A stretch of DNA of 64,000 bases from IMG/VR virus record IMGVR_UViG_3300008448_000049, positions 10,133 to 74,132 of that record; one strand, given 5' to 3'. The position numbers and the translations under genes were made by a program. Each line of letters begins with the position of its first letter. The stretch's first letter is position 1. The notes beneath the pieces were generated by a model. It was not told the origin of the DNA. It saw nothing but the letters and a program-made list of their open reading frames with translations, and made no database searches. This DNA comes from a virus. This document shows, piece after piece, positions 3,001 through 53,257 of this stretch.

Positions 3001-3702
3001 GCAACACCAAATTTCTATCAAGCTGATACGGTATTTGATGATCCTACAAGAAGAATTGCAGCTATGAATGAGCAACGTAATATCGGTGCTCAAAACATGG
3101 CGGCCTTTACTAATCCTCAAGCTTACATGTCTAACTTCTTAGCTGCTAATAATCTTGGTGATGTAGCTAATGCTATATCAGATGTACATAGTAGAAACAT
3201 AAATATAGCTAATCAACGTGATGCTTATAATGCTCAAGCTTTAAATGCTTTTGATGCAGAAAGAGCCAACCGTGAAACAAGATTATACGATAAATCTAAT
3301 TTAGCTCAAGCGGCTTATGATGCTGAAAGAGAAGCTAAGAAAGATGTAATGAGTCAAGTATTTAATACAGGTATGAAGAATGCTGCTGATATTTATAATC
3401 TTAATCAGATGCGCCCTCAGTTTGCTGTTACTCCTTTTACTCAGACTATGTTCCACAGTAATCCACGTGATCTTAAACCTAATTATACGCAAGAGAAAAA
3501 TCTTGCTGATGTTTATAATGAGATTCTTGCATCACATGATAATCTTAATGCTACAGCAGAAGGAAGGAAAGTAGCATTAGAAGCAGCTAAGCAACAATTA
3601 AGAATTCCTCTTACTCAGGAAGATCCTTACTTGGAATACCAAAGGTCAAGAGCTCAAAGTCAGATACCTCAAGTAAACCCATATGCAGATCAGGAAAGTT
3701 AA
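1..3702 (+). CDS. Large virion/cargo structural protein (5'-truncated at window edge)
   Basis: Frame is open from position 1 (PKKNGYTPAEIAKKY...) into the 118..3702 ORF. Protein is low-complexity and Cys-free with recurrent xxGG motifs. It lies upstream of the crAss-like RNAP block. Confidence 0.65.
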   Translation, partial: PKKNGYTPAEIAKKYNTAPYKKILADKNTDDLQRETAELMLSNFNLKLGKLALIQESMKGFPQGIPEIAMPYLEAMEINPEDLMQQNPGAPQEGEDAAGQESAMEIGGPVMAQQPGAPLQYLQDGGPDYFAMGGLKRYQTAGAVKEEPNRYKDISNWDNYQIDNPYDFYNIQERIWDSYKGTDKRLGQVDDDAIKKLDEQIALINSYKETQPEVYKNLLPRLDRLIKSKQQGSELGLKGSGDRNEFELGEPYVHPDIQAASDAYPVMPAKEPTPGFGGGFGVDDEDDEQEFAGTYKDDYEAYMDALKSNDPKKMATVADQLISRASSATPWYSAKWYPNSNADKFQDLANILYEKAYPKAKPKTSTKNIEAAKSAKEVYQKVYDEYAKLPAGPAKQELRGRLDTLSALHPDYLKKHVSSGVSGGPSIMGTVSYDANEFTPDFYNAKDYDLINKYKQAYLQPKKDTVTKVAPKTNTVQEAGFKPKWTLAQLDSAIAADEAKPKKRYGGATKKVRITGLPSSLQKAQYGSTIPVNSPLMQPGVQLDFNNPNYAAQAAINTNYSLDATIPETSPLKKPATKLDFTASDATKPTNTENKNLAYKDTQIKWGPKYGVSGPATAQGIISGMDFISSLGRNKEMLALEQKMKEKQFSMFTPEAGNKGSWVQSGMAYGLQNPNSNIVQQPGYMTMRRNTFGYGKSEFGGAMDQYKLGGFTTVNGQTGAYDDRYPNIFIPLTRADYDSRIAKENAAAGAKAQPSSGSSSGSGASKKGQSVASTIGVYTPEWTAYLTELAKSSGMSIDDPRFKAKLPSYFFDDATGRLKSKAELEKLTRTDATQKALKSGAFGDEYWEGAYKDDFVRRHKKLIEKFEAEHPGETFNPTKKDLKGGSESSHMKWFQEEYNKMAKEKGAPTYDFGAPNRFGRLSYSVPSFEDFEEPTKAPGEKPAETQTDKKTSMPAEALKYKHLAEPRINTPAFGWTMQDMNNMGRAVSSYFSTKKQMPWEATPNFYQADTVFDDPTRRIAAMNEQRNIGAQNMAAFTNPQAYMSNFLAANNLGDVANAISDVHSRNINIANQRDAYNAQALNAFDAERANRETRLYDKSNLAQAAYDAEREAKKDVMSQVFNTGMKNAADIYNLNQMRPQFAVTPFTQTMFHSNPRDLKPNYTQEKNLADVYNEILASHDNLNATAEGRKVALEAAKQQLRIPLTQEDPYLEYQRSRAQSQIPQVNPYADQES

Positions 3703-3758
3703 ACTTTAAAAGTTTAAGTATAAACAATAAAAATTTTATTAAATTTACAGATAAAAAA

Positions 3759-6749: not shown

Positions 6750-6751
6750 TT

Positions 6752-9700
6752 ATGGCAGAAGAAGTTACACCACAACCCACAGAACCAGTATTACAATCCG
6801 CGCCAATAACACCTGGATTACCTGAGCAAGGTTCATCAACAGATCCTTTAGCAATACTAAGAGCTGAGATGCCTGTTGTAAATTCACTTATACCACAAGG
6901 CCTTCCTCCTAGTATAAATGCTAATCTTAATATTCAAGGTAGTTATCAAACAGGTCCTAACCCTGGTGCTAAAAAAGCCGGGACTATGGATTATGCATTA
7001 GCTCTTAGAGATATGATGCAAGATCCTAATTGGTCCCAAGATAAGTATAAGTATGGACGTACTTACTCTTATGGTGCTGGTAGCAAGAACATGAACTTTG
7101 ATAGATATTATAATCATCCAAAGTTTAAAGAATTAGGATTTTCTCCATACCGTGATAATGAAACTCACTATAATGAGAACTCATCTTGGTGGGATGACTT
7201 TAATAGAATGAAAGGTCAATGGGCCGGCTTAGCTTGGGGCGGTGCTAAATCTGTATGGGGTGATGAAAAAGAAGCTCATGAGAATATGGAGAAAGGTTTA
7301 GCTATTGGTTCATCTACAAGAGGTGGTGTTGGTGGTTGGGTAACAAACTTTGGTATTAACAGTGCTTACACTGTAGGTATCATGGGTGAGTTAATAGTAG
7401 AAGATGCCGCATTAGCCGCTGTTGAAGTAGCTTCATTTGGTACAGCAACTCCTGAGGTAGCTTATTTAGCAGCAACTAGAAACGCTATGGGTATTGGCAA
7501 AATTGCTAAAGCTTTAAAAGGTACAGCTAATTTTATCAAAGAACTTAAGAATGTAGATAAAGCTAAAGACTTTTTTACTGCCGCAAAAGCTTGGGATACA
7601 ACTAAAGATATTGCTAAATGGGCCAATCCTTTAGAACGTAGTATGGAGACAACCAGTCACTTGCTAAACAACACTCATGGTTTTAATAATTTAAAGTCTA
7701 GTGCTAAGATTAGTAAAAGCTTTGGTAGTTTTTATAGAGATATGCGTGAGTTAAATGTAGCTCACTCAGAAGCTAAGCTAGAAGGTGAAGGCGCTGCTAG
7801 TGAGTTTCAAGATAATATGATTGATAAGTTTTATGCTGAGAATGGCAGAATGCCAGAAGGTGATGAAGCTAAACGTATATTTGACACAGCACAATCTTTA
7901 AAGGCTTCTGTTATTGGAGCTAATGATTTAACAATCTATTTTACAAACAAGTTGGCCTTTGAAGATTTATTTGAAGGTATACGTCCTGGCGCTCAATTAG
8001 CAAAAGCTTTTACAGAAGTAGGCACAGAAGGATTTTTAAAAGTTGCAGGTAAAGCTTTTAAGAAAGCTACAGCAGCTACAGCAGGAAACGCGTTGTTACA
8101 AGAAGGAAAAAGAACAGGTGCTCAAAGAGTTGCTAACTTTTTAACTAAGTCACCTTACTTACCTTGGAGCCGTAAGTACATGGTTGGTAATATTGGTGAG
8201 GCTTTACAAGAAAATGCTCAAGAAGTTATTACTCAAGGTTACTCTAGTTACTATGATAAGATATACAGTGATCCTGTTAGTGCTGTACATGCAAGTGTAC
8301 TTTCTGAAATAGGTAAAGGTATTGGTGATCAGTTTTCACTAAAAGGTCTTGACACTTTTGCTCAAGGTTACTTAATGGGATCTCTTATTCAAGGAGGTGG
8401 AGCTGCTATAAAAAATAGTAAGAACTTAGGAGTGCGTGGTACTAAAGCTGCAGCTTATGGTGTAACAGGTGGTAAGGTAGGTGCTGAATGGAATTCTGAA
8501 ACAGAAGCTGACCGTGTAAAACAACAACGTGAAAAAAATAAGAATGAGGTAATGAATGCCGGCAATACTATTGCTGAACATGCATTGACTTATGGAGCTG
8601 GAGATGAGAGATCATCTTTTGCTGCAGCTATAAAATTAACAAATCAAGAAAAGAAAAACAGACTTGCGGAAGGAGATAAAGTAGGAGCTCATGACATGGG
8701 TGATGAAACTCAAATTAATCACTTTGAGATTCTTGCCAAAACAGGAAACATGAAACTGATTACAGATCATGTTGATGATATGCTTAGTCTTGAAGATAAA
8801 GATTTAGCAGACGCTTATAATCTTGATGAATCTCAAGCAGGTGATGCTAGAAAAAAGTTACAGACTTTAAAAAGTAGAGCTGAAACATATCAAGCTAGAT
8901 ATGATAAAGCTAAAAAGATTAATCCTAATCCACACAACCCGTGGATGTTTGATCCTAAAAAATATCCTGATGCCTATGAAGATGAATACTTTAAATACAT
9001 GGCTCATGAACAAGCTGTATCTGATATCTTATTTGCTACAGAAGACTTTGATAGAACTGGTGAGAGAATGGTTGGTATTGCCAACAAGCTTGCTGGTGTA
9101 GATTCAGCTTATCAAAATATATTAAACACTAGTCGTGGTGGTATTCCTATGGCTAATGTTACAGCTGTTGACTTAACTGCGTTGATAGATCCTATACAAT
9201 CTATTGATACTAAAACAAGTTTACAAAATCAGATTACAGCTATGGAGCTTGGCACACCTGAACAGAAAGCTAAAGCTGTTGAGTTAAAAGAACAACTTGA
9301 TTTTTTAGAAACTTGGCAAGGAGATGTTGAAACTTATCTTTTACATCTAGACTCAGATCATAAAGCTAATATATCTGAGGAAGAAAGAATGCTCAGAAAA
9401 GAAAGAGCTAGAATGTTACCCGGCGCTACAATTATTGAGAAATACAGTGGTCAAGAATTTAAAATTGAGACTGACGCTAAAGGTGAATTGTACATCAATA
9501 AAAATGGTAAACTTAAAAAGTTTAACAAAAATAATTACACTGTAAGTAAAGATGCTCCTGGTGTAAGTCCTGAATATTTAGAGGTAGAAGGTGATGAGTT
9601 AAATAATGCTATAGCCAGATTACATGGGTCATTTCAAAAATACATAAAGAATGTAGCTAAGATGAATAAGGGTTACACCTTTGATGATCAGTTGAATGAA

Positions 9701-12202: not shown

Positions 12203-12204
12203 AA

Positions 12205-15200
12205 ATGAGTTGTTTATCACAAGAAGAAATAAGAGATGCCCTATTTGATTTAGTAGCTGGTGATTTATATGATAAAGCTAAAGAAGATCAGGTAATTGAT
12301 TTACCCGCATATATAAAAGAAGTATATGAGTTTGTTAAAGAATCATCAGAAGATGAAGCTACAGCTATTAGTGCTGCAGCAATGGCACCAACAATAGTTA
12401 AATTAATTCTTGCTTTAGATACTGAATTAGTTGATAAAATTGAAACAAAAAATCCAGATCTTGAAAGTGATAACCTGGCATTAATAAAAAAATTTAAGAA
12501 CAATACAGATGCTGTAAGAGAAACTGTTGGTGCAACTAAACCTGTTGCTATTGATGATTCAACTCTTAAGTCTTCCGCTTCTATAAAAGTTACAGATGAA
12601 AGACCTACTTCAAAAATCAAAGAGAGTTTTAATAGATTTATGACTTGGGCCTTCCAGACTTTCCGTGTAGATATAAAAAATTATGAGAATCCAAAAGATA
12701 ATGATTGGATGAAGTCAAAAGTTGAAGAAGCTTTAAACTTTACAGTACAGAAAAAGATTAACCAAGCTTTATTTGAACAAGGTATCAATGACAGTTCTGA
12801 GATGAAACTTGATGGTGTTGAAGGTGGTGTGTACTTAAGAGCTATGAACGGTGATACCTTAAGATTAAATTATGCACCATTGATTCCTAAAACTGAAAAA
12901 GGTTGGACACCATTCTTATCTAAGTATGATATTTACATGGTCCTTACCAATGAAGCAGGTGTGCCTATACAATTTGATCCAGAAGGAACCGTAGTTAAAG
13001 ATGGTCAACTCTCTTACTTAAGAGCTAAGAGTAAAGCTCCAATGGACGCTAAAGGTAATTACATAAGTCATGAAGATAAAGAGGCTTTAGAAAAATACAT
13101 TAATAAAAATGTAAATAATGATCCTTATTACAGCAGTGCTATATCTAAAAAAACTGGTAGTGAGGCAGTAAAAGTAATTGCTAAAAGTATTCAAGAGCAG
13201 CTTGAGATGATGGCTAAAAGCTATAATCCTCTGTATGGCACTAAAAAGTTAACGGATAAGGAAAATGAAGAACTTAAAAATAGAGCTACTGATGAATTAA
13301 AAAAAGAGTATGCTGTACTAGAAAAGATGCGTGATTATGTTATAGCTAATTCTAGTAACCCTGATAAATTTTTATTGTCTGTAATGACAGGTACTTCTGA
13401 AGGGTTTGTTCCATACTCACCTTATGTAACAACGCCACTTAAAGATATTAATTTTGAACAAGGTTTCCAACCACGTGTTATAAAAGAAATTCAATCAGCA
13501 ACATCTAATGTATATCAGTCTGGTGTTTATTTTGATTATCCAAATATTGATGAGCCAATATCTATTAATAAAAAACCTTTAGTACAACAAGATGACATTC
13601 TTAACAGTGTTATTGATTTATTCACAAAAGATTTGTGGATGACTATTAACGGTGTGCTACAGCCTGTTCCTATTGGTAGAAGAGAAGAACTGATTAATCA
13701 GTTTATTGTGAATGATTTACACCATGTGTATTTCATGGCAGATAGAAAAAGTGGTACTATTAATTATGAAGATAAAGATGGTACTATAAACATAATGGTT
13801 GACGGAACACGTTACCCTTTAAAGTTTGATGGATCTAAGTCTGGTCAAGAAGCTGCAGCTGCTGCTATAAGAAAACAGTTAAGTACAGGCATGATTGTTT
13901 ATGATGAGAACGGTAGATATCCTGAAGACAAATCAATTAATACTAAACCAAAAGCATTGAAAGCTGCTAGTGCTTTAAATACTCAAATTGTATATGCTGA
14001 GTATGAAACTGATGAGAATGGTATAAAAACTATAAAGCCTAATGATTTAGAAAGAGTTAATAAACCTGGTGTGTATGCAATACAAAAAGGTACTAATTAT
14101 GATTTTGTAGGAACTAATGGACAACCTGAGTATGATTATTTTCATGCAAATGTACCATCAATTGTTATTGTTGACAAACTTATTGAGCCAGGCTATGATG
14201 AAATCTCTTTTACACAAGAGGGTGATAAAGTTATTTTAAATACAAAAAATGCATCATACAAAGACTTTCTTAAAAATAATTTCACAACTAATGCTGTTCC
14301 TTACAACTATAATAACACAGATGAGAAAGGAAAGATTGAGGTTGTAAATTCATCAGTTACTTTTTCACCTACTGCTGAGTCTATGATTAAGTTGGCAGGA
14401 GGAGAAAAAAACTCAGGAGCTGTAGATAACCAAGAAGAAATTGCTAGATTAAGAGCAGAAGAGCAAGAGTTACTAAAAAGAGAAATACCTAACATAGATG
14501 CTTATAAAGTAGATGGTAAAGTAAATCCTTTCTTAATTCCAACTACGGAAGAACGGGAGAAGTATGAAAAGATTTGGGAAGACTATGATAAAAAAATAAG
14601 CCCTTTATTAAAGTTTGCACCAGCAGAACCAAAAGCTGCAGAGACTAAACCGGCTGAGCCAACTATTGAACCATTAACTACAAAGACTACAGCATCATTA
14701 TCTCCAGAGGATATATTAAATAGCCTTAATGACATGAGTAATGAATCTGACTTTGAAAGAAATTCAAGGTTAAAGTTATCAGGTGCTCGTGGTTCTAAAG
14801 AACAATTAGATGCTGCTGCAGAGTGGTATGCTAAAAGTCCATTAAAAGAACACTTTCCATTCAAAGTTGTACTAGCTGCATTGAATGCGCAAAAACCTGG
14901 ACCAGCTGCTAGGTGGGCCGTTAATGGTATTACACTATTTAGATACTTTAATAACCCAGATGTTAGCGGTGACTATACGGATTTATACCATGAAGCATGG
15001 CACGGATTTACTCAGACATTCCTTACACCTGAAGAGAGAGAAGCAATGTATGAAGAAGCGCGTAAGAAAAAAGGTTCTTTTACAGACTACAATGGTAAGC
15101 GCGTAGCTTTTGCTGATGCTAAATGGAAACAACTAGAAGAATATTTAGCTGAAGACTTTAGAGCATACATGATGTCTGGCGGTAAGATCAAAGACAAAAC

Positions 15201-21200: not shown

Positions 21201-24200
21201 GGGCTTTAAAGATGAGGTTGATGAAACCTTTGGTGATGATGAGAGATTTGTAAACAACTTGAGAAATGACTGGATAAGCTTTTTATTCCAAAATCAGATA
21301 CGCAAATTTGATATAGATAAGGTTAAAGATTATAAAGGTCTTGTAATTCAGGATACTCTTGGTGTTAAGTTAGCACCTAGTATTAAGTATGGTGTGTTTG
21401 TAGCTCCGGATAAAACGGGAGCACTGACTGTTTATATGGATAAAGTAAAGTTGAGACAAGACTTTGCAAAACTATCTAACAGCACAAGCTTAGAAACTGC
21501 AACCCTTCTTCCTGACGGTACAATAATTAAACCGGCTGATGTTGATGCTGCAGCGTTCCCTACACCTGATACCTATTACAAATTTGTAATTGAGAGAGAG
21601 TTATTAAGAGCTATGTATCCTGGTAAAACAAAATGGTCAGTATTATTAGAACGTGCTGATGTTTCCCGCAAATTGAAAGACGCATTAGAATCTGGGCCAA
21701 CTTTTGAAGGTGAATCAAAACAGAAGAGAGAAGCTCGTATTAATACTGAAGTTTATGAAGAGACTCTACGTGACATGGCTTTAGAGAATACTTATAACAC
21801 TTGGAAGATGTTCCAAAGTCGTACCTCTATGGCTGATCAATTTAATGAGATTGCTGCATTATATCCAGAGCTTAGAAAAAACTACAGCTTAATGAATATA
21901 CTTACAGGTACAATCCGTAATGATAAAAACAATTCCAACCGTATTGGTAACTTACAATTACTGGATTCTCTTTTAGATGGTACTAAGTTGAACTTGTTAC
22001 ATCAGAACTTAAAAGACATGTCTGATCCTACTAAGTTAAGAATCAATGTTAAGTCTGCTCAAGAGAGAACTCGTATTGCTGAATTCTTTAACAAGTTTGG
22101 TCTATATGCGTTTTTACAATCAGGTTTAAATACTAGTGGAAGATTCTCATTAACAAGAGTAGTTCCTCAAGAGATGTTTACTGCAATGATGAGTGAATAC
22201 ATGGGTGACTTTATGAAGAACATGAATGAGCTTACCTTTGAACGTTACTATACAAAGTTTAAAGCTATCAATAGTAGAGCTGGTTCAACATCATACCGTG
22301 ATTACACAGTGCCTGAATTTGATATGGCTGCAGATAAAAATAAAGTTGTTGACAATCCTGTTGGAAGTGCCAAAGAATTAATGTTTAACGAAAAAAAATC
22401 AAGAATAGATAATTTTTATCTTGACAATGCTGGTAACAAACTTTATCATGCTAATGAGTTTAGCCTTAATAAAGAAGATACTATGCAAGCTATAACTATG
22501 ACTCAAGCTGCTGACATACTTGAAAGCAGACCTACAGAAGTAATTATCTTTAATGGTACTGATGGAACTACGGCTGGTCAAGGTACAAAAGGTGAGGCTG
22601 CATTTGATGCTTCCCTATCTACACACAGTAATCTTATTGCATTCCCTGTTAAAAAGAGTTATGAAATGATAAGTGGTAATATACCAAACAGCGCACTTAT
22701 AACTGATATCTCAATAGAAGAAGCTGAAAGAATGAAAGCTGAGATTAAACAACAGGAAAAAATCATTAATAACCTTGTTTCAGGTCCTAAACTAGAAGTG
22801 GGAGTATATGCTGAATACAAAGGTGATAATTACATTGTGACTAAAAAGCTTGATAATGGAACATGGCAACTTTATAATCCTGACATAGGTAGTAAACTAG
22901 CAGTTAGTCCTAGCAACTTTGCATTACTTATGGATAAACCTATTTCTCTAACCAATAGAGATGTTAAGTACTGGGTAAGTCCATTACACAATAATGCTAT
23001 TATATCTCAAGTAAGCAATAACAAAATGAACTGGCCTGATGAGAATGGTGTTAAAAGAGAAATAATGGCTAAGGTACAAAGTCAAAGTTCTAACAAAAAT
23101 GCTGATCAACAAAACATTACTCAACCTGCTCAGAATACTTTTAAATTTGCTGACGGAACTATTATTGATACGCCATTCAAACTTAATGAGCAACAGGAGA
23201 AAGCGTTGTTATCTCTTGAGAATTTTTATAACAAGCCAGGAGAGTATGATAATCAAATTACCTTGCTTGGTTATGCCGGTACAGGTAAGACTAGTATCAT
23301 CACAATCTTTGATAACTATTTAAAAAAGAAATTTGTTAAACCTCTATACAGTTCTCCAACACACAGAGCTAATGCTGTAACTAAGATGAAGAATCCTAAA
23401 GCTGCAGTATATACTTTACATAAATTGTTTGGTTTAAAAGGTCAAATCAAATTTGAAGATGGTGATTATGATTTAAGAGATTTGAATTTTGCAGCATTTG
23501 ATAAAGATGGCAAGCTTAATAAAAACGCTAAAGTTCAAAAGGGTGATATCTTAATTGTTGATGAAGCATCAATGGTTAATGACGCGCTTTATGATTTCTT
23601 AGAGAAGTTTAAACAGATTCTTAATCTTAAGATTATTTACATGGGTGATCCAGCTCAGTTAAAACCTGTTAAGCAAAAAGACTTGTCTAAAACTTTTGAG
23701 AAAGGAACACAGTTACAACTTACCAAAGTTGAAAGAACAGGTGACAATCCTATATTAGAAGAAGCGACCAACTTGAGAAATGGTAAAGATTTTAATTACC
23801 AGACTAAAATGATTGGGGAGCAAGGTGTTGAATACTCTGATGAAGCTAATTTCACAAACAGAATAATTGGAGAAAACTACACAAGTGATGAGTTTAAAGA
23901 TAACAAGCTTTATTTTAGAATTCTATCTGCAACCAATGCTGTTCTTCCAGGTATTAACAGAAGAGTAAGAGAGTTACTTTACGGTGATGAAGCTGATAAA
24001 CAACTTGTGAAAGGTGATTTATTGATGGGTAATAATAACTTTGATATAGATTATAAGACCAAGCAACCATTGATTATAAACAGTGGTGACTATATAGTTG
24101 ATAGCATTGAGGAGTCTGTAAAAACATTACCTGTAGGTAACAAGACAATCAGCTTTAATGGTTTTCAAGTTAGACTTAAGAATGTATTAGATCCAGAAGA

Positions 24201-26130
24201 GTCTGCTAAGAGTGTATTTATTGTAAGCAATAATGAGTCAGATGAGAAGTTAAAAGATTTCATGAATGAGATTGACCGTTTAAATAAACAAGCTGAAGAT
24301 TTTAGAAATCGCGGACAGTTTAGTGCTTCTGCTCAACTTTTTGCTGAGGCAAATGAACTTCAGTCTAGTCTTGCATTTATGAAAGATCTAGTATCTGATA
24401 ACAACAAAGTAAAAGTTAAAAAGACTTTAGACTATGGTTATGCTCACACTATCCACAAGTCACAGGGAGGAACCTATAACAAAGTACTAATACTTGCTGA
24501 TACTATTGATAGTCATAGAGATCCAGAAACACGTCAACAACTTAAGTATGTTGCAATGTCAAGAGCTTCTGAAAAGGTATATGTATCTACTAGTCATGAG
24601 TTAGGTACACCAATCATACGTGATGGCCTTGTCGCTCCTGGTGACGTAGCTCCAACTGTAGAGCCTGTTGAAAGTAAGCAACCACAAGCTTCTACAAGTA
24701 CTAAACCTGATATTATTTTACCAATTGGTACTTCAGGCAGTGGTAAATCTACTTGGATAAAATCTTTACCTAAAGGGCAATTTACTTTAATATCTCCTGA
24801 TGAAATGAGAGTGGAGTTTACCGGAGATATGAATGATAAATCTAAAGATGATGAAATATATAAGGCTGTAACAGAAAGAGCTATAAAAGCTGTAAAAAGT
24901 GGCAAGCAAGTAATCATTGATACTACTAATCTTAAGAAGGAAAGAAGAAGACCATTCATAGAAGCTGTCAAAAAAGCAATGCCTAATGCAAATATTCAGT
25001 ATAAGCTTATGCCATTGAATGCAGAATTAGCTAAACAAAGAATAAAAGCAGATATTGCTGCAGGAGTTAATAGAGCAAATGTATCAGATGAAACCATAGA
25101 TAGACATGCTGCATCATATAAAGAGATGTTAGAAGATATTAAATCTGAAGATATGTCTAATTATGATACTCAGCCACAAGCTTCTATAACTACTGATAAG
25201 TTTGCTAAGAAGAATATATTTACTGTAAAGCCTATACAAACAGCTGATACAAAAGCTATTATTAAAGCAAGTATAGCTACTCAGTTTATAGGATTTGGTG
25301 AAGGTATTGAAAGAAGCTCAACAGAAAGTTATAGACAACAAGTAGGAGCATTAGCTAATACAGGTAACTACTCAAAGGATGATGTTATATTTGTGTCTAT
25401 TGGTGGTAAAAGACCTGCTAACAATTTAGAACTCAGGAAAGCTCAACAAGATAGAACTATTAGAGAAGCTTTAAAAGCTATTGAAGCAGGTGCTACTATA
25501 CTTACTGATAATATAAATTACATACATACTGATAATAAAGGTAATCTTCAAAATGTAAATATGAGTGTAGAAGAATTTACTAAAACACAAGGTTTGTATA
25601 ATGAAGGTGAAAAAAGACTTGCTAAAAATCTTGAATCTAAAGGATATAACTACTCTGAAATAACAGTAGATGGTCAGCTTATTGGTACATGGAGTAAGCC
25701 ACAAGAAAGTAACATACCACAAGATACGCGTAATGGTGAGGACGTGCAGGATGATAGTAAAACTCCCCGTCCAATTAACGGTATGGTCATGGACCCCTTC
25801 TTTAAAAAGAAAATTGATAAGACTATACAGTCTATGCAACAGAAAAAGAATGCGGGTATGACGCTTGACTTTCCTGTTAATGGTATTGGACAGCACATGA
25901 TTGGAGCTGACCCTAACACTGGAAAATTAATTGGTGATATTAAGCCTATTGCATTATCAAGTTTCGTATATTTGTCTGAGCAGCTATTTGAGAAATTTGG
26001 GTATGTTAATCCTAACTATGAAAAGGTACTTGGATACATTGGGGAACAGAGCCCGATCCAAGCTGCTTCTGAAGTTACTGATGACATGCTTGACACAGCC
26101 CTTAGCTTTTGCTTTAACAATATAGTATAA
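12205..26130 (+). CDS. Virion-packaged two-barrel RNA polymerase polyprotein (zincin + RNAP + SF1 helicase + P-loop kinase + further domains), 4641 aa
   Basis: RIPTQ (~19528) and GGDFDIDK (DFDID at 19645-19659) match crAss-like RNAP catalytic motifs. DAQGWIT at ~18238. HEAWH at 14989. Helicase motifs GYAGTGKT, DEASM, GDPAQLKPV, HKSQG and YVAMSRA. Kinase motif GTSGSGKST. Confidence 0.9.
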   Translation: MSCLSQEEIRDALFDLVAGDLYDKAKEDQVIDLPAYIKEVYEFVKESSEDEATAISAAAMAPTIVKLILALDTELVDKIETKNPDLESDNLALIKKFKNNTDAVRETVGATKPVAIDDSTLKSSASIKVTDERPTSKIKESFNRFMTWAFQTFRVDIKNYENPKDNDWMKSKVEEALNFTVQKKINQALFEQGINDSSEMKLDGVEGGVYLRAMNGDTLRLNYAPLIPKTEKGWTPFLSKYDIYMVLTNEAGVPIQFDPEGTVVKDGQLSYLRAKSKAPMDAKGNYISHEDKEALEKYINKNVNNDPYYSSAISKKTGSEAVKVIAKSIQEQLEMMAKSYNPLYGTKKLTDKENEELKNRATDELKKEYAVLEKMRDYVIANSSNPDKFLLSVMTGTSEGFVPYSPYVTTPLKDINFEQGFQPRVIKEIQSATSNVYQSGVYFDYPNIDEPISINKKPLVQQDDILNSVIDLFTKDLWMTINGVLQPVPIGRREELINQFIVNDLHHVYFMADRKSGTINYEDKDGTINIMVDGTRYPLKFDGSKSGQEAAAAAIRKQLSTGMIVYDENGRYPEDKSINTKPKALKAASALNTQIVYAEYETDENGIKTIKPNDLERVNKPGVYAIQKGTNYDFVGTNGQPEYDYFHANVPSIVIVDKLIEPGYDEISFTQEGDKVILNTKNASYKDFLKNNFTTNAVPYNYNNTDEKGKIEVVNSSVTFSPTAESMIKLAGGEKNSGAVDNQEEIARLRAEEQELLKREIPNIDAYKVDGKVNPFLIPTTEEREKYEKIWEDYDKKISPLLKFAPAEPKAAETKPAEPTIEPLTTKTTASLSPEDILNSLNDMSNESDFERNSRLKLSGARGSKEQLDAAAEWYAKSPLKEHFPFKVVLAALNAQKPGPAARWAVNGITLFRYFNNPDVSGDYTDLYHEAWHGFTQTFLTPEEREAMYEEARKKKGSFTDYNGKRVAFADAKWKQLEEYLAEDFRAYMMSGGKIKDKTSSTKNGIFTRIMNFLKELFSGVNINDVNYSPLGIPKIQAMYENLKLGNLSGYNFNVENRDKTIGALDHAMIASKNDENMPELDFETTNKIMSSVNSIISSYTNTRNLKEDTRVHRQVYSYTTTLMKDKTRALEVYKYIKSIFENEVLSNLNRDLAAAKAKPDNEYEVIALEQDITGIQWAINNFGDLTNLANNKDGKDVIGYHLKTSRLLTEEDRAELLDEVSEVDALIKASEKFDRPGNDVGSYDMAPPEVKYVLSTIHKWEGTKPVMNSFGIQELSDPSIVWNRISRTLKGTMSASEMYEKLQAAAGKDPIIADLLKKLGPVKTHTAAETDLWIKFWTVFNKAEIPLMQMTVFREKDIEGRELDEYSIKIGSNNSVSRIAQTRWTNTFSTVTSDYRKRDPQKANEIYLDVKKVIEQFGVKDRTGKYIFEDAKNSYEFFRAIGIELSDSDELRDIVNKGKGKATRIFDRLNNILNRGTDKIYNLKDIFKEYPAVDKIAALSSETTLTDLANEEVKFADYASNYAVNNAEGNIQFEQSLHNSISIMISAINSSKDYADLISKPFMAHLDIDKNPFAKASVWLNSIYKMDEYKKGSTTEVGVKRDQKSDINLKAAINMSNLSGVSIVSDKRDEGVASASADEFTKLILDFHVSNVIGRPELMRHADKGTSFSLWLSDIITPGSSDNKSYVDTIDFINQPLDNGSQYVPGYGNASRVLKKYIDAEMQRITKLKALKDQKDLIYDAKYLKEGQNFVIFEDVLSPKTRAFLSNYPTLAEAAAVDPDISNDIDREIAKYFDNQSKQVGRMMNSANYISKSLMVKTATDANKANKANVTNKTVKNALIKSFVVNSWIHNIESMAVIYGDIAQYKLEKEEFHKRNAGAGSTGGLIASDPVFIEYVNNKSRLSNIPGRSNTYAEKMKIFGKDGQTKKLASDGSFQSAILEDNNIRSEYFEDIANALIDSEEKKLGSREKAIKKVLGFEVDKEGKETGKLGTIDEPFKNGSVYAFTEMNEGDAQGWITFDFYKATAILEGSWTPAQEKLYNKIINEEPVDYSEVLNFFPTKKYQYWGPVQHKDKDGKAIDGPPLTAFYKFSLFPLIPNVVKGKNLGALHTRMMEKGIDFAMFESGSKISNFTRINADGKADKDKFYSSVDGQDRTVDATGDMVPNTVFLQFLKKQLEIAPYFKGKVTFPTQMRKLIENGLMEAGVPTDYEMHLPVKQREKLWRSLSLEKKLENSQFYRLVKNYEKDLSDLTKLKMKKLEAEASIKRDEDGNVIFNEKLAEFIIKELDRQDLAEHEIGFIKSGTNNTLAHDLSYSLSAEKIEKILNSIVVKRLVKQKFKGEGLIQVSGAGFEDTLRGKLTDEEKAKYGTNGLAFYKRKGGPNGTTSAMKVKIALQGSFENLLYLKDKDGKEIGTIERLNQLLKDESWLDIGDHRKMVSITGPRIPTQENNSMEFAEVYEFLPREAGNIVILPSEIVAKSGGDFDIDKITFMMPNISSGINWASWLEEGSGKREELQKSTTLDLSAENVKRVIDNRKADELSVEDQAVLRILAENSDKNVKFPFDSKTEEGLENRILDDMKNILSLKENYVSLVRPNGTDIVKPLADELSSKVMDYNPKKRLYDAPNSSRIAGTRLFEIPYNMYKHTSNSIGKQTLGLGAVDNTFNTVFNRIGARMNYEYWGSRNVKRRLDLLFNHNTLQDDQGRDVISLSHLMDVNNDNSISSIIGQLINGWVDIAKDAWIFNLQGNKEISPSLLFLVQAGVPLKQAVYFVSQPIIREYVKEMQQAKSTFAGPMGKGTDNPNLFRGEARKVIFKKLGYDASQMAVFNENNEKKQEFLDKRTLELTDKKTGSEIDFFNPDKVEANLKNKIDAYANAVKEQQESSDSEAPLNYNYDVKDEAIFLHFLEVEEMTNSATKFKMALNVDTTKTNNIFQAQNKNEIIKDLQTDGKLPAEIVKLIQEESPIGSFFTQDFQIGLWKNLFKLRNDDDLNKWILNKTRQMGFKDEVDETFGDDERFVNNLRNDWISFLFQNQIRKFDIDKVKDYKGLVIQDTLGVKLAPSIKYGVFVAPDKTGALTVYMDKVKLRQDFAKLSNSTSLETATLLPDGTIIKPADVDAAAFPTPDTYYKFVIERELLRAMYPGKTKWSVLLERADVSRKLKDALESGPTFEGESKQKREARINTEVYEETLRDMALENTYNTWKMFQSRTSMADQFNEIAALYPELRKNYSLMNILTGTIRNDKNNSNRIGNLQLLDSLLDGTKLNLLHQNLKDMSDPTKLRINVKSAQERTRIAEFFNKFGLYAFLQSGLNTSGRFSLTRVVPQEMFTAMMSEYMGDFMKNMNELTFERYYTKFKAINSRAGSTSYRDYTVPEFDMAADKNKVVDNPVGSAKELMFNEKKSRIDNFYLDNAGNKLYHANEFSLNKEDTMQAITMTQAADILESRPTEVIIFNGTDGTTAGQGTKGEAAFDASLSTHSNLIAFPVKKSYEMISGNIPNSALITDISIEEAERMKAEIKQQEKIINNLVSGPKLEVGVYAEYKGDNYIVTKKLDNGTWQLYNPDIGSKLAVSPSNFALLMDKPISLTNRDVKYWVSPLHNNAIISQVSNNKMNWPDENGVKREIMAKVQSQSSNKNADQQNITQPAQNTFKFADGTIIDTPFKLNEQQEKALLSLENFYNKPGEYDNQITLLGYAGTGKTSIITIFDNYLKKKFVKPLYSSPTHRANAVTKMKNPKAAVYTLHKLFGLKGQIKFEDGDYDLRDLNFAAFDKDGKLNKNAKVQKGDILIVDEASMVNDALYDFLEKFKQILNLKIIYMGDPAQLKPVKQKDLSKTFEKGTQLQLTKVERTGDNPILEEATNLRNGKDFNYQTKMIGEQGVEYSDEANFTNRIIGENYTSDEFKDNKLYFRILSATNAVLPGINRRVRELLYGDEADKQLVKGDLLMGNNNFDIDYKTKQPLIINSGDYIVDSIEESVKTLPVGNKTISFNGFQVRLKNVLDPEESAKSVFIVSNNESDEKLKDFMNEIDRLNKQAEDFRNRGQFSASAQLFAEANELQSSLAFMKDLVSDNNKVKVKKTLDYGYAHTIHKSQGGTYNKVLILADTIDSHRDPETRQQLKYVAMSRASEKVYVSTSHELGTPIIRDGLVAPGDVAPTVEPVESKQPQASTSTKPDIILPIGTSGSGKSTWIKSLPKGQFTLISPDEMRVEFTGDMNDKSKDDEIYKAVTERAIKAVKSGKQVIIDTTNLKKERRRPFIEAVKKAMPNANIQYKLMPLNAELAKQRIKADIAAGVNRANVSDETIDRHAASYKEMLEDIKSEDMSNYDTQPQASITTDKFAKKNIFTVKPIQTADTKAIIKASIATQFIGFGEGIERSSTESYRQQVGALANTGNYSKDDVIFVSIGGKRPANNLELRKAQQDRTIREALKAIEAGATILTDNINYIHTDNKGNLQNVNMSVEEFTKTQGLYNEGEKRLAKNLESKGYNYSEITVDGQLIGTWSKPQESNIPQDTRNGEDVQDDSKTPRPINGMVMDPFFKKKIDKTIQSMQQKKNAGMTLDFPVNGIGQHMIGADPNTGKLIGDIKPIALSSFVYLSEQLFEKFGYVNPNYEKVLGYIGEQSPIQAASEVTDDMLDTALSFCFNNIV
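23170..24595 (+). other. Dda/RecD-like SF1 helicase domain within the RNAP polyprotein
   Basis: LNEQQ, Walker A GYAGTGKT (23269-23292), PTHRA, IVDEASM, GDPAQLKPV, YGYAHTIHKSQG and YVAMSRA. Confidence 0.9.
24706..25165 (+). other. Polynucleotide kinase-like (AAA_33-type) P-loop domain within the RNAP polyprotein
   Basis: IGTSGSGKSTW, ISPDEMR and IIDTTNL, followed by a lid-like segment ELAKQRI. Confidence 0.8.
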
Positions 26131-26135
26131 CCAAT

Positions 26136-29100
26136 ATGATAACATGTCCTAATCTTAGTAATCCTACTGTGAAAGCACAGTGGGATGCTATTGCTAATAA
26201 CCCTGCTCTAGGTAATAGAGAAGCCATGCGTGAATTCATGGAAGCTGAAATGAATAACAGGCCTATTGGTACACCTGAACAGGTGATGGCTAAACTTGAA
26301 GCTAGGGAAGTAGTAAACCCTATAGCAAGTCATGACAAGTTTGTTGCAGATATGAAAAATATTATAGCTGCTAAGTCTAATGACCCTGTACTTACTGACC
26401 CAGATACACTCTACGGCTTTGCTTCCGTAGTACAACCTATTAATACTAAATCATTATCTGTTACTGATAACAGTAACGGCCGTGCTATGGAAGTCTTAAA
26501 CAAGCTTTCTGAGGCAACAGGCATTAATTACTCTTTCATTACACCGGAGGAAGCAGTAATCATCACTGCTAATTCCAAGAACCCATACACTATAGGTAGA
26601 GCACCCGCATTTTTCCACGGGGGCACTGTATACTTCATTAATGGTATGGTTAATACAGAACTTGCTTTCCATGAATTTGCTCACCCAATTGTTCGCACTA
26701 TACAACAGGACAACCCTGTTCTATTTGAAAAACTATATATGGACGCTATTAGAGCTGACCAGACTCTTTTGGATGAAGCTATTGCAGAGTATCAAGATTT
26801 ACAAAAGGCACTTGACAATGCTGTTGAAGATGAAGAGAAAGATGCTATCAGACTTAAGTTACAGAAAGCTGTTGCGGAAGAAGTAATTGTTAAAGCACTT
26901 ACTAGAGGAGCAATGCTTAAAGAAGCGGGTATTAAACCAAGCACTGGATTAGCTAAAGCACTTAACAATATATTAGCTGCTATTAAAAAGATGCTGAGGA
27001 GCGTCTTTGGCAATAAAGTAAATGTAGCCAAGTTGGATGAAACTACTTCACTTGACAAGCTTGCCGAGATGTTACATGCCGGCGGGAACTTTGTTATAAA
27101 CACTGAGACTGTAAGCCAGGCGGATGTTGTTGCGTATAATCAAGACTTTCAAAATTATGTGAATGATTTAAAGCAAGCTACTGAAGGTGACAAAGGCCAA
27201 GCTGTGATGGCTATGGCTAGAAGAATTTATGAAGGTGCTACTGATCAAATTGAAATGATTATGAAGAACAAGAATTATCAGGAGATGATTAACTTGTTTG
27301 CCGATCAATACAACCGTGGTGACTTACAGGAGATGCGTGCTAATGTATCCCGTTATGCCCGTGAGCTTGAGACCAAAGCTGAATCAATGATTGAAGATAT
27401 CCAAAAGACTCAGAGTCAGGTACAATCTGTTGTAGGCGCTATGCTCCGTTTAAAAGTCATGATGACTAAAATGGAAGAGCACTTGAATGAATTAAGAAAG
27501 GACGCTACTAATAGAGACAACGTACACAGAGCTTACTACTATGCACGAGTACTTGAGTATTGGCAAAAGTATATTTCTGAAGCTCAAGATATGATGATTA
27601 AAGCAGGTGCCAAATCTGATTCTCCAATGAATCAATTGCTTGGTAGTATAGAAACTTCTATGAAAACTTCTGCTAAACACATCAACCAGATGAACAATGA
27701 AGGTATCTCTGATATCTTATGGGAACAATGGGAGAGCATGTCTAATAGAGCTGAAGAGTTATTTAAAGATAAGATTAAAAGATTAGAAGACCGGAACGCT
27801 AGCCAAGCTGCAATAAATAAAGAGTACGTTAAATTCTACGGTATGAATAAAGCTGATTATGAGCGTTACAAAATGCTTCAGGCTAAACAAGAATCAGGTC
27901 AGGATTTAACTTATGAAGAGAGTAAGGATTTAGAGATTGGTAAGAAAGCCAGCTTTGATGGTATAGTTATGTCTCGTGAAAAAGTTGCCCGTGCTATTCG
28001 TGGTGAGGGAGCAGATGCTAGATACATTGAGTCTTATTTTGAAGGATACCTTTATAGTAGTGACCCCGTAATTGGTGGCTTTGCTTTGTACTTTAAAAAC
28101 AACATGACTGAGATGGAAGCTAGAGTACAATCTAGAGTTAGCGGCATGTCGGGAGCACTTAAAGAATTAATTGATGATGCTGGCATAAACTTTTTAAAAC
28201 CAGGAGAGCTTGGTAAAAAGATAGGCTTTGTGGATAAGTTTGGATACATTGATAAGAATGGGACTTTCCAACAAAAAGAAGTATGGGCAATGCTTAATCC
28301 TTACAAGGATTATAGATATGATGTTGATAGGTTTAACAATGAGTTAAAAGGTTTACGTGACCGTTATAACAGAGACCGTAGTAAAGAGAACCAGGAAGCG
28401 TTTGCTGCTAAGCTTGCAGAGAAGAATGCTCACATGCGTAAATGGATGCAACAAGAATACGTTGATGAGTACTATGAAAAAGATGACTTACTTGGTAAAG
28501 ATGCATCAGATACTGTAGGACAAAGAGCTAAGTTCTTGAGAGATGAAATCTTTAATAGAATGGAGATTATTAATCTTGCAGCTAATAGAGATGACCAGTT
28601 AGTAGATAACACTAAAGAGATGGACGATCTGTGGAAAGAGTACAATCAACTGTATTCCTCCTATTACTTAAACGGACAAAAGAAAACAGGTGTTGATCTT
28701 GAAGTTGCCCAACGTTTACAACAACATAGAGATCTTACTCGCAAGTTCCATGAGTATAAACCTAGAACTGGTGTATATGAGAATGAACTAGCTAAGAAGG
28801 AACAACAGATCCGTGACAACTTAATCTCATTACAATATGAAGAAGGTACTGAAGAGTTTGATGATCAGTTTGAAGCTTACCGTGATATGTGGATTAAAGC
28901 AAATACAGTTACTAAAATTAAACCTGAGTTTTATGAAATACGTTCAAAACTAATTGAGAATCTTAAAGAGATATTAGGAAGACCTGCAGCTAGACTTAGA
29001 CAACAATTAAAAGATCTTGAGGCTAAAGGTATTAAAACCGCAGCTGACAGAGCGTTAAAAAAAGACTTAGAAGATAAATTAGTCTCTGCTGATACTAAGG

Positions 29101-31952
29101 CTAAGAAGACTGATTTTACTGAATCATTTAAAACTATCTTGGACATTGCTTCTGGTTACAGAGACAGTGATGGACAACCTATTGGTTCAGATATGCTTGA
29201 TGAACGTAAGGCTGTTATCAAAGAAGCTCAAGAGGAGATGGAGAATGCACGTAATGAATGGGCTGGCTACTCAGGATTAACTCGTGACGAGATGGAGCTT
29301 TTAATTGATTTGTCTAAAAAGAAAAAAGAGAATGGTGAATTAGAACCAAATGAGTTTGAGAAGTTTAAAGAATTACTAAACAGGCAAGATTCACTAGGAC
29401 TTACTAAGAATGAACGTGCTGAGATTACAGGCTTGTTTGGAGATCTTAGAGAGCTACAAACTAAAGACCCGACTACTTATTATGTTGATGCTATTAATCA
29501 CTGGATGGATATAATAGACTCACAAGAAGTGTATGATGAATTAAACTTCAATGAGTTTAATGCAAGCAACATGGATAAGCTTTATAATCCGAGTGTATTA
29601 AGCAAGATGTTTGCTAAGAGTCCTGAGTTTGAAAAATGGTTTAAAGCAAATCACCTTGAGAAAAATTATAGAGACAAAGATGCAAAGTCTGTAACAAGCT
29701 ATGAAAGATTATATGTATGGAACATTATTAAACCTAATGACCCAAACATGTATGAGACAAAGCCGTCTCTTAAATACTTTACAAGAGTTGTAAAAAAAGA
29801 GTACAAGAATGGTTATGATAAAAACACAGGTGAAGTCAAATTAATAATAGGTGTACATAAAGATAACAGAGGAGAGTGGTTACCTAAGCAAGATGTTAAT
29901 TCACCTTATTACAACCAAGCTTACTTTGACTTACAAAAAAATGATCCTAAATTATTTAAACTTCTTGAGTTTCTTAAAGAAGAACATTTAAAATCACAGG
30001 ACGGTCTTTCAAAACGTGGTAAGTTGTATTATGATTTCCCCCGCTACGGAATGAGTGGTTTAGAAGCTGCCCAAGCAAAAGGTATAAAAGGAACAGCTGC
30101 AGAAAAGCTTAGTCCTATTTCAGCTATGCTCACAAAGATTAAGCAATTTTTTACGGGAGCAATGGATGAGCAGGGTAGTATTTATAACGCGGATATGGCT
30201 AACGAGTTGGTTAGAGCTGATGGTTTTAATGACCAGATAGAGAACATACCAATGCAAGGCTTATTTAATCTAGAACTTAAAGATACTTCAACAGATGTTA
30301 TAAGTGGTATACTACGTTATATCTATAACGCTGAACACCACAAACAGTTGGTTAAAATGAATCCTATTGCTCAAGGTTTAAAGAACTTGCTTGAAGATCC
30401 TAATAATAAACTTAAGGAACTAGATAAAATTAACCGTTCAAACTTTATAAACTTTGGTGCTACAACTTACGCTAACAAGAAAGGTAAGTATATCCGTAAG
30501 GATGCAATTGCCCAGTATTATGAACGTGACTTTCAGGGCCAGTCTATAACAGGATTTGGTAAAGATATACCATGGATACAGAATGTACAGAGACACTTGT
30601 TTGGTAAAGCAGCGTTTTCCTTCTTTGCCTTTAACATACCATCTGCTTTGAAGAACATGTTTACTAAAAAGTTTCAGAGTTTAATACTTGCTTCAGCAGG
30701 TAATGATCTTACAGTAAGTACCTTGTTTAAGGGAGAATCTTGGTCAATGAAATACATGATGAAGCTTAGTGGTTCTGATATCTATGCTAAGGGGCCTAAG
30801 TCACTGGAGCATCAGATAGGTGAGATATTTGATCCAAGCCCTAATAGATTTCAAGAAAAGTTTCATGAGTCAATCACAAGAACATTTGCAAAAGATGTAG
30901 TGAGTACGGGTTGGTTTTATAACTTCCGTAAATGGACTGAGGTACAAGCAACCATGCAAACATTTGCTGGCATGATGTTCAAGAAGAAAATACCTATGGG
31001 TAATCAGATGATTGATTATATGGATGCATGGGAACTTAATGCTCAGGGTAAGATACAACTTAAAGCGGGTATTGATCCTACGTGGGGTATTACGTATGAT
31101 GAAGAAGGTAACATGAGTGTAGGTGCTGAATTTAAAGCATTTAAAAATAAAGTTGGTGCTGTTAATACAAAACTGGATGGAGCTTTTGCTAAGCTTGATC
31201 AGCCTTTGATGCAACGTCTTATAGCATTTAGATTTGTGCAGTTCCTTAAAAAGCATATGATCACAATGAGTATTAACAGGTTTGGAAGAAACCGTATGGC
31301 TCCAGGATATGGTCAGGAAGATGAAGGTTACTATGTGCAAGCTGTTAAGTCTTTACTTGGGGCTATTAAGAATAGAAACATAAATGATATGACTAGAGAA
31401 GATAGAGCAGCTTGGATGAGAATTATTACTGAAGTTGGTGTGCTTTATTTAATGGGTCTATTAATGGGACCTTTATTTGGATGGGATGAAGACGATGAAG
31501 ATAGATACAAGAAGCTACGTGAAAAGAGTGGTAAAATGACAATACCTTTCTTAGCTGATGAAGAGCCTGGACAAGAATTTAACTTAGCAGGTTTCATGGA
31601 ACTGCATGCTATGAATCAAATGCTTCAGATCCGTTCAGAGAATGAGCAGTTTATTCCATGGCCAGGTATGGGTCTTGATAACTTATCAACTGTTGTGGAT
31701 CTTAAGTCATTAGCCTTTGGACCAACAACAGATACATGGCAACGTATAGGAACTGACCTGGTTAATATATGGGAAGGTAATGAACGTCAGTTTTATAAAC
31801 GCCGTAGTGGTCCATTCAACTGGTCACAACAAGGCGGTCGTCAGATATGGGCCCATATAGGTAAGATGTTTGGTGTAACAGGTTCTAACATCTCACCAGG
31901 TGATATGATTACAAACTGGGATAAGGCACAAAACATGTCTGCCAAGAGATAA
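26136..31952 (+). CDS. Large ejected protein with N-terminal zincin-like domain (1938 aa)
   Basis: HEFAH at 26670-26684 followed by EEVIV. Long helical body with a C-terminal hydrophobic segment. Follows the RNAP gene as in crAss-like phages. Confidence 0.75.
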   Translation: MITCPNLSNPTVKAQWDAIANNPALGNREAMREFMEAEMNNRPIGTPEQVMAKLEAREVVNPIASHDKFVADMKNIIAAKSNDPVLTDPDTLYGFASVVQPINTKSLSVTDNSNGRAMEVLNKLSEATGINYSFITPEEAVIITANSKNPYTIGRAPAFFHGGTVYFINGMVNTELAFHEFAHPIVRTIQQDNPVLFEKLYMDAIRADQTLLDEAIAEYQDLQKALDNAVEDEEKDAIRLKLQKAVAEEVIVKALTRGAMLKEAGIKPSTGLAKALNNILAAIKKMLRSVFGNKVNVAKLDETTSLDKLAEMLHAGGNFVINTETVSQADVVAYNQDFQNYVNDLKQATEGDKGQAVMAMARRIYEGATDQIEMIMKNKNYQEMINLFADQYNRGDLQEMRANVSRYARELETKAESMIEDIQKTQSQVQSVVGAMLRLKVMMTKMEEHLNELRKDATNRDNVHRAYYYARVLEYWQKYISEAQDMMIKAGAKSDSPMNQLLGSIETSMKTSAKHINQMNNEGISDILWEQWESMSNRAEELFKDKIKRLEDRNASQAAINKEYVKFYGMNKADYERYKMLQAKQESGQDLTYEESKDLEIGKKASFDGIVMSREKVARAIRGEGADARYIESYFEGYLYSSDPVIGGFALYFKNNMTEMEARVQSRVSGMSGALKELIDDAGINFLKPGELGKKIGFVDKFGYIDKNGTFQQKEVWAMLNPYKDYRYDVDRFNNELKGLRDRYNRDRSKENQEAFAAKLAEKNAHMRKWMQQEYVDEYYEKDDLLGKDASDTVGQRAKFLRDEIFNRMEIINLAANRDDQLVDNTKEMDDLWKEYNQLYSSYYLNGQKKTGVDLEVAQRLQQHRDLTRKFHEYKPRTGVYENELAKKEQQIRDNLISLQYEEGTEEFDDQFEAYRDMWIKANTVTKIKPEFYEIRSKLIENLKEILGRPAARLRQQLKDLEAKGIKTAADRALKKDLEDKLVSADTKAKKTDFTESFKTILDIASGYRDSDGQPIGSDMLDERKAVIKEAQEEMENARNEWAGYSGLTRDEMELLIDLSKKKKENGELEPNEFEKFKELLNRQDSLGLTKNERAEITGLFGDLRELQTKDPTTYYVDAINHWMDIIDSQEVYDELNFNEFNASNMDKLYNPSVLSKMFAKSPEFEKWFKANHLEKNYRDKDAKSVTSYERLYVWNIIKPNDPNMYETKPSLKYFTRVVKKEYKNGYDKNTGEVKLIIGVHKDNRGEWLPKQDVNSPYYNQAYFDLQKNDPKLFKLLEFLKEEHLKSQDGLSKRGKLYYDFPRYGMSGLEAAQAKGIKGTAAEKLSPISAMLTKIKQFFTGAMDEQGSIYNADMANELVRADGFNDQIENIPMQGLFNLELKDTSTDVISGILRYIYNAEHHKQLVKMNPIAQGLKNLLEDPNNKLKELDKINRSNFINFGATTYANKKGKYIRKDAIAQYYERDFQGQSITGFGKDIPWIQNVQRHLFGKAAFSFFAFNIPSALKNMFTKKFQSLILASAGNDLTVSTLFKGESWSMKYMMKLSGSDIYAKGPKSLEHQIGEIFDPSPNRFQEKFHESITRTFAKDVVSTGWFYNFRKWTEVQATMQTFAGMMFKKKIPMGNQMIDYMDAWELNAQGKIQLKAGIDPTWGITYDEEGNMSVGAEFKAFKNKVGAVNTKLDGAFAKLDQPLMQRLIAFRFVQFLKKHMITMSINRFGRNRMAPGYGQEDEGYYVQAVKSLLGAIKNRNINDMTREDRAAWMRIITEVGVLYLMGLLMGPLFGWDEDDEDRYKKLREKSGKMTIPFLADEEPGQEFNLAGFMELHAMNQMLQIRSENEQFIPWPGMGLDNLSTVVDLKSLAFGPTTDTWQRIGTDLVNIWEGNERQFYKRRSGPFNWSQQGGRQIWAHIGKMFGVTGSNISPGDMITNWDKAQNMSAKR

Positions 31953-52978: not shown

Positions 52979-53257
52979 TTATTCTATTTTTGCGGTTAAA
53001 TTATTTTCACACAGCGCCTCCTTGATGGGCTTGAGTGTTTTCATATCTCCTTCTTTTACGGAGCACTTACCATTGTTGTGTATAATCAGAGCACATTGTT
53101 CAGCTTGAGACGGTTGATGACTGCAGTATTTTGTAAAGCAGTATATAACATGTTCAAACGTGTTGTGATCATCATTGTATACAACAATGCTTTTTGATTT
53201 TGCTACTTGTTCTTCAACAAGCACGTCTTCTTCATCTATAAACGGATCAAATGTCAT
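52979..53257 (-). CDS. clpS: ATP-dependent Clp protease adaptor ClpS
   Basis: IVVYNDDHNTFEHVI...AEQCALIIH..GKC.VK.G, the Bacteroidota-type ClpS signature. Confidence 0.9.
   Translation of the reverse strand: MTFDPFIDEEDVLVEEQVAKSKSIVVYNDDHNTFEHVIYCFTKYCSHQPSQAEQCALIIHNNGKCSVKEGDMKTLKPIKEALCENNLTAKIE

Follow-up and report, generated by a model that had tools for sequence, protein, structure and literature searches.

We analysed 64,000 nucleotides of viral DNA, hereafter the window, which correspond to bases 10133-74132 of the single 74,132-bp contig IMGVR_UViG_3300008448_000049. On the plus strand, eight giant open reading frames (ORFs) stand in a row, encoding proteins of 1361, 940, 899, 1361, 996, 1816, 4641 and 1938 amino acids (aa). 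After them, on the minus strand, lies a replication module with a DNA polymerase, a primase, DnaB-like and other helicases and an exonuclease. This is the layout expected for the virion RNA polymerase (RNAP) module of Crassvirales, where giant cargo genes follow the tail genes and a replication module lies on the opposite strand. Our subject is the last three giant proteins, which we named B, C and D in gene order and which total 8395 aa, together with the few cysteines that they contain. Their coordinates and main features are collected in Table 1.

Table 1. Genes, cysteine codons and sequence motifs of the B-C-D module, in window coordinates.
Feature	Position	Strand	Remarks
Gene B	6752..12202	+	1816 aa, 201 kDa; first link; sole Cys is Cys1813
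B Cys1813 codon	12188..12190	+	4th residue from C-terminus
Gene C	12205..26130	+	4641 aa, 523.5 kDa; predicted crAss-type virion RNA polymerase with added modules; middle link, Cys at both ends
C Cys3 codon	12211..12213	+	Column invariant in C-family alignment
HEAWH (HExxH, zincin-like), C residues 929-933	14989..15003	+	Region homologous to C-terminal part of crAss001 gp47
DFDID catalytic motif of two-barrel RNA polymerase, C residues 2481-2485	19645..19659	+	D2481, D2483 and D2485 invariant
Dda/RecD-like SF1 helicase module, C residues ~3560-4127	22882..24585	+	
Polynucleotide-kinase-like P-loop module (AAA_33), C residues ~4169-4328	24709..25188	+	
C Cys4636 codon	26110..26112	+	6th from C-terminus; column nearly invariant in C-family alignment
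Gene D	26136..31952	+	1938 aa, 222 kDa; last link, Cys at N-terminus only
D Cys4 codon	26145..26147	+	Inside conserved motif M-x-x-C-P-N-L-S-D-P; C4 invariant in D-family alignment
HEFAH (HExxH, zincin-like), D residues 179-183	26670..26684	+	

The initial annotation, made from the window sequence alone, had labelled the 4641-aa protein an RNAP, and this label was borne out both by the DFDID motif, which is invariant in 50 homologues, and by tblastn matches to crAss-like genes annotated as 'putative RNA polymerase'. Specifically, a search of phage records with C returned 120 matches, comprising crAss001, phi14:2 and 118 others annotated as crAss RNAP, with a best E-value of 4e-23. Its sequence identifies C as a two-barrel virion RNA polymerase of the crAss type to which helicase and kinase modules have been added. 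C joins several unrelated enzymatic modules (zincin motif, RNAP, SF1 helicase and kinase) in one chain, and homologues bring further domains, namely YbiA-like, ART, NUDIX, PD-(D/E)XK and LysM. In the zincin-like motifs of C and D the H/E/H residues are invariant or nearly so, an assignment at the level of the motif and without a Pfam hit; these HExxH motifs could digest the cell wall or process cargo. The C-terminal part of D is homologous to crAss001 gp49. Neither B nor D matched Pfam or PHROGs, tblastn of D against the phage collection gave no match, and a profile of the N-terminal part of B had no hit among named crassvirus proteins. The outer ends of the two proteins look polar: homologues of B mostly begin with an acidic, M-A-E-E-like stretch (window 6752-6775), and those of D finish in a basic tail such as ...A-K-R or ...K-K (window 31920-31949). 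A megablast of the B-C-D region against the phage collection found no match, and single-sequence searches of the locus recovered close relatives only, 86-98% identical and all retaining the same four cysteines. Genes for capsid, portal and terminase were not found on the 74-kb contig, so the genome is incomplete. We conclude that the phage is a distant crassvirus and that B-C-D is its RNA-polymerase cargo module.

The 8395 residues of B, C and D contain four cysteines, located at the fourth position from the end of B, at residue 3 and at the sixth position from the end of C, and at residue 4 of D. Translation and re-reading of the codons showed that the initial annotation had placed all four exactly; it had also been right that the outer ends, the N-terminus of B and the C-terminus of D, hold none. 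The minus-strand ORFs of the same window contain 1.6% cysteine. B-C-D do not show the complete absence of cysteine that is typical of Schitoviridae, as four terminal cysteines are kept and conserved. When four cysteines are placed at random, the probability that one falls into each of the four 6-residue windows at the inner termini is 6e-12, and chance was rejected as the origin of the pattern. A related possibility is that the cysteines are a by-product of DNA signals at the gene junctions, for instance sequences for ribosome binding or coupling, since the window's cysteine codons lie within 20 bases of stop and start codons. We assign a negligible probability to both forms of this explanation, because the rule holds in about 300 diverged homologue clusters in which the flanking residues vary.

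These homologues were searched in a set of 5.8 billion proteins and were recovered down to 24-25% identity. The search returned 59 clusters for D, 188 for B and 240 for C, and for B and C the best 120 each were examined. In the D family, 58 of 59 clusters have an N-terminal cysteine (residue 3-5) and one has a C-terminal cysteine, with six internal cysteines in 122,481 residues. An N-terminal cysteine is absent from all 120 examined B clusters, while 118 carry a cysteine within the last 10 residues, and their 214,919 residues again include six internal cysteines. C-family members have cysteines at both ends, within the first 10 residues in 109 of 120 clusters and within the last 12 in 119, with 44 internal cysteines in 455,326 residues. 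Internal cysteines of the three families thus occur at a rate of 0.003-0.01%, compared with 1.6% in the other genes of the phage. All of the clusters without an expected terminal cysteine, among the approximately 300 examined, proved to be truncated relative to their nearest relatives. Only the terminal cysteines are 100% conserved; the residues flanking them drift. A second, index-free search that used the first 330 residues of D as query yielded another 127 representative clusters, of 1000 aa or more, with a D-type zincin domain. An N-terminal cysteine is present in 120 of these clusters and a C-terminal one in none, and 96 have no other cysteine. The start of the zincin domain ranges from residue 3 to approximately residue 1470 among them, yet the cysteine stays at the N-terminus. 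Conservation of the terminal cysteines, a check that the initial annotation had called for, was found in all full-length members of the approximately 300 clusters from the first search.

The N-terminal cysteine is fixed at residue 3-5, where it forms part of short motifs (MxC[ASL]L and MxxCPN) that are possible recognition sites, and C and D contain HExxH protease-like domains. Both observations would fit a scheme in which the terminal cysteines act on each chain separately, as sites of acylation, as processing or cleavage signals or as redox sensors. We regard such separate chemistry as highly improbable. There is no known bacterial or phage modification that uses both an M-x-x-C start and a cysteine 1-10 residues from the end. 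Moreover, separate chemistry does not predict the strict complementarity by which an upstream C-terminal cysteine is present whenever there is a downstream N-terminal one, nor does it predict the joint loss of both cysteines when the two proteins are fused.

These relationships were read from the RNAP block of 16 annotated phages belonging to the Steigviridae, Intestiviridae and Suoliviridae, plus FpV4. All 16 follow the terminal-cysteine rule, including the cultured phages crAss001, phi14:2 and FpV4. The three proteins of phi14:2 have a cysteine as the last residue (1797 aa), at residue 3 and second from the end (2180 aa), and at residue 3 (1421 aa). In crAss001, the cysteine is third from the end in gp47, at residue 5 and ninth from the end in gp50, and at residue 5 in gp49; cr128_1 and IAS virus, which also have three separate proteins, show the same pattern. 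crAss001, cr128_1 and IAS virus encode their gp47-like protein on the opposite strand, and it still ends in a cysteine. The pattern therefore belongs to the proteins and not to the junction DNA, and an origin as a by-product of junction signals was rejected. The same three phages qualify the proposal of the initial annotation that the products are linked in gene order, which is upheld for the order of the proteins in the chain but not for the layout of the genes.

Other named phages carry fused versions of these proteins, and the fusions were verified by BLAST mapping of gp47, gp50 and gp49 onto the fused proteins and by family hidden Markov model (HMM) profiles. B and C are fused in FpV4, cr10_1, cr118_1, cr4_1, cr53_1, cr7_1 and cr108_1, giving proteins of 4287-5443 aa (in cr108_1, 2967 + 792 aa across an intron). 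These fusions have no N-terminal cysteine and no pair at the fused junction, but carry a cysteine 1-11 residues from their end, and the D-type protein that follows has one at residue 3-5. Conversely, C and D are fused into proteins of 4070-4620 aa in p-crAssphage, crAss002, cr271_1 and cr110_1; here the fusion has a cysteine at residue 3 and none at the C-terminus, and the separate B-type protein has one at the second position from its end. The initial annotation had suggested testing whether terminal cysteines follow gene fission and fusion, and the outcome in both kinds of fusion was as predicted. The gene breaks fall at non-homologous positions: residues 928-1080 of the window's C correspond to the C-terminal region of gp47, which is internal in the fused proteins, and the B|C break of the window falls within the region equivalent to gp47. 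The cysteines thus track protein termini rather than homologous positions.

The two-protein arrangements also indicate which termini belong together. Phages of the B+C|D type keep only the pair formed by the end of C and the start of D, and those of the B|C+D type keep only the pair formed by the end of B and the start of C. Since each class keeps one pair, the three-gene phages would by homology carry both links, giving a chain B-C-D; a closed ring of C together with a B-D link is disfavoured by the same pairs. The counts further bear on whether facing termini share a metal ion such as Zn, Cu or Fe through their thiolates, with no disulfide, an alternative that the initial annotation had raised. 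Thiolates bind metals well, and the reducing cytoplasm would not prevent such a site from forming. However, each junction offers two cysteines with no other invariant ligand adjoining, and a two-protein phage, with two cysteines in all, could build a Zn(Cys)4 site only as an oligomer. Because such phages keep just this one pair, a single metal site of the Zn(Cys)4 kind common to all four termini is excluded, and we consider a shared metal ion in general very unlikely.

The rule also proved useful as an annotation aid. It distinguished a real gene break from one made by an intron in cr108_1 (MT774385), where the RNAP gene is interrupted inside the DFDID motif by a group I intron (Rfam RF00028, 80 bits, E = 1.4e-20; locus positions 21790-22108) and neither end of the false break has a cysteine. 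The cr108_1 record annotates this split gene as two 'hypothetical proteins'. The rule also flagged two likely mis-called starts. As annotated, crAss002 gp33 (locus 16215-28952) and cr110_1 gp40 (locus 16761-30014) have their cysteines at residues 35 and 17, whereas beginning at an internal methionine, residue 33 or 15 respectively, restores the M-S-C that is usual for the RNAP fusion protein; translation probably starts later than annotated. In addition, the rule offers a prediction of which giants are injected together as a set. Among the same phages, late genes of cr4_1, cr53_1 and cr7_1 contain 4 to 148 in-frame TAG codons each, which points to TAG recoding, and the terminal-cysteine rule holds there too. 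In IAS virus (KJ003983; locus 14399-23381) the RNAP gene appears as two overlapping ORFs beside ambiguous bases, probably through an assembly error.

From these comparisons, and by analogy with a solved phage structure described below, we think it probable that B, C and D are joined head to tail in the virion by inter-chain disulfides. The three proteins would be counterparts of crAss001 gp47, gp50 and gp49 and of the products of the three RNAP-block genes of phi14:2. They would be packaged in the virion, and they have been purged of cysteine, as have other phage proteins that are ejected across the cell envelope. Two inter-chain disulfides would form in the particle, one between the C-terminus of B and the N-terminus of C and the other between the C-terminus of C and the N-terminus of D, so that the three chains would become a single linear, nearly unbranched thread of 8395 residues and ~947 kDa. 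Such a tether would be the functional equivalent of the peptide bond in the fused relatives. It would maintain equimolar amounts of the parts and keep them joined during packing in a partly unfolded state, passage through the tail and refolding in the host, and the reducing cytoplasm could then open it. Head-to-tail C-to-N pairing, as put forward in the initial annotation, is well supported as regards chain order by the absence of cysteine from all 120 B-family N-termini, by the loss of the pair on fusion and by the bond solved in cyanopodophage A4. We infer the disulfide itself, in this protein family as in this phage; the same holds for ordered threading and for release by reduction in the cytoplasm, both of which are plausible. 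Co-folding of C residues 4330-4641 with D residues 1-330, conducted on the window sequences only and without homologue alignments, gave a score of 0.02, which speaks neither for nor against the bond.

Several observations weigh against a B-C-D disulfide chain. The case for the bond in this protein family is comparative throughout, and the A4 precedent is an analogy, with no detectable homology of the A4 proteins to B, C and D. Gut crassviruses have up to ~15 internal cysteines in B-, C- and D-type proteins. Assembly of particles takes place in a reducing cytoplasm and the habitat of gut phages is anoxic, which leaves the timing and manner of bond formation unexplained, and comparison of ten cysteine-rich small ORFs of the window with Pfam revealed no thioredoxin-like or oxidase gene. 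Finally, lone cysteines with no obvious partner occur on smaller cargo proteins. A gp45-like protein has one near its C-terminus in p-crAssphage (775 aa, locus 4940-7267; second from the end) and in crAss002 (557 aa, locus 5520-7193; eighth from the end), and a 598-aa protein of FpV4 (locus 7811-9607) has a lone Cys5. These proteins sit upstream of the RNAP module, where further links or another partner are possible.

Unpartnered cysteines of this kind on gp45-like cargo would also fit an arrangement in which the terminal cysteines of B, C and D bond otherwise, as homodimers (B-B, D-D), as a ring of C, or as anchors to cysteines of the capsid, the portal or other cargo. Bond partners cannot be read from sequence alone, and the structural proteins of crAss001 virions are rich in disulfides, with many inter-subunit bonds in tail and portal-vertex proteins (PMC10172136). 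Nevertheless, we judge bonding to other partners unlikely. It leaves unexplained why the outer ends are free of cysteine (0 of 120 B N-termini, 1 of 59 D C-termini and 0 of the 127 further D-type clusters) and why C-terminal and N-terminal cysteines are equal in number in every arrangement class of the RNAP module; the two-protein classes, moreover, allow a hetero pair only.

Beyond the tether itself, we entertain a broader and rather doubtful idea, namely that the terminal disulfides create a 'post-translational polyprotein'. A thread of ~1 MDa might leave the capsid processively, each link pulling the next, until the host cytoplasm cuts it and this redox switch frees and activates the injected RNAP. 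Gene fusion and a cysteine pair would then be interchangeable across Crassvirales, and independently in cyanopodophages. In the human gut, crassviruses are the most abundant viruses. The question of how their megadalton cargo, including an RNA polymerase, exits in the correct order and proportions is still open (PMC10172136), and a conserved covalent tether offers a concrete hypothesis for it, testable in the three cultured phages crAss001, phi14:2 and FpV4.

Other genes of the contig showed features of their own. The first giant ORF (1361 aa, contig 71-4156), which lies upstream of the window, has 12 cysteines and matches PHROGs of the 'virion structural protein' class, and the four giants after it have 0-2 cysteines each. 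This drop looks like a sharp border between structural tail proteins and ejected cargo. The 996-aa protein directly before B (3759-6749) has exactly two cysteines, at residues 128 and 134. On the minus strand, a 91-aa ORF (52979-53254) has a Pfam match (PF02617, E = 1.4e-15) to ClpS, the adaptor of Clp protease, a gene unusual for the early or replication region of a phage.

The closest parallel to the proposed bonds comes from cyanopodophage A4, whose structure determined by cryo-electron microscopy (cryo-EM) contains a disulfide between gp27 Cys1715 and gp26 Cys5 in the pre-ejectosome, inside the capsid, beside a C-terminal gp27 helix that inserts into gp26 (PMC12002296, PNAS 2025). In the genome of Anabaena phage A-4L, gp27 is 1717 aa long with a single cysteine third from the end, and gp26 is 1114 aa long with a single cysteine at residue 5. 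As in B-C-D, these are adjacent ejection-protein genes whose otherwise cysteine-free products have lone terminal cysteines facing each other. The solved bond is hetero and C-to-N, which argues against homodimers or other partners in the crassviruses, and as a disulfide it argues against a metal site. However, A4 has one link between two proteins with no RNA polymerase in the chain, whereas B-C-D would be a chain of three that includes the RNAP. Profiles of the B, C and D families scored near zero or negative against A4 gp26-gp29 (best 1.9 bits), BLAST found nothing below E = 0.18, and a D-family profile run against Protein Data Bank (PDB) chains returned coiled-coil noise only. The A4 study describes the bond as a detail of a single phage's structure and not as a conserved rule (PMC12002296).

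Among crassviruses, mass spectrometry detected gp47, gp49 and gp50 in crAss001 virions, which they are believed to leave through the tail in a partly unfolded state (PMC10172136), and identified the RNAP-block counterparts of phi14:2 as virion proteins (bioRxiv 10.1101/2020.03.07.982082). C is homologous to gp50 and to the phi14:2 RNAP, D to gp49, and part of C to the C-terminal region of gp47. The terminal-cysteine pattern of gp47/gp50/gp49 and of the phi14:2 three-gene block is the same as that of B-C-D, but the RNAP of the window is twice as long as those of crAss001 and phi14:2, with helicase and kinase modules. In combining unrelated enzymatic modules, C also resembles the polyvalent proteins of phages, which are giant, multi-domain and packaged.

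The giant virion RNAP of the N4-like Schitoviridae and its ejection partners have cysteine frequencies of 0.00075% and 0.0055% (PMC11445570). They share with B-C-D a giant ejected virion RNAP, neighbouring ejection proteins and strong suppression of cysteine. Schitoviridae ejection proteins are essentially free of cysteine, ends included, whereas B-C-D keep a cysteine at each inner terminus; because their counterparts are stripped of cysteine altogether, the retained terminal cysteines of B-C-D stand out. The polymerases differ in fold as well, the N4 virion enzyme being reported as a T7-like single-subunit RNAP and C having the DFDID motif of the two-barrel type. We found no description of a terminal-cysteine rule for Crassvirales in the literature searched, and the word 'cysteine' has 0 occurrences in the crAss001 atlas (PMC10172136) and in the phi14:2 RNAP preprint (bioRxiv 10.1101/2020.03.07.982082). 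Relative to published knowledge, the arrangement described here is a new, order-wide and multi-link variant of the single disulfide of A4.

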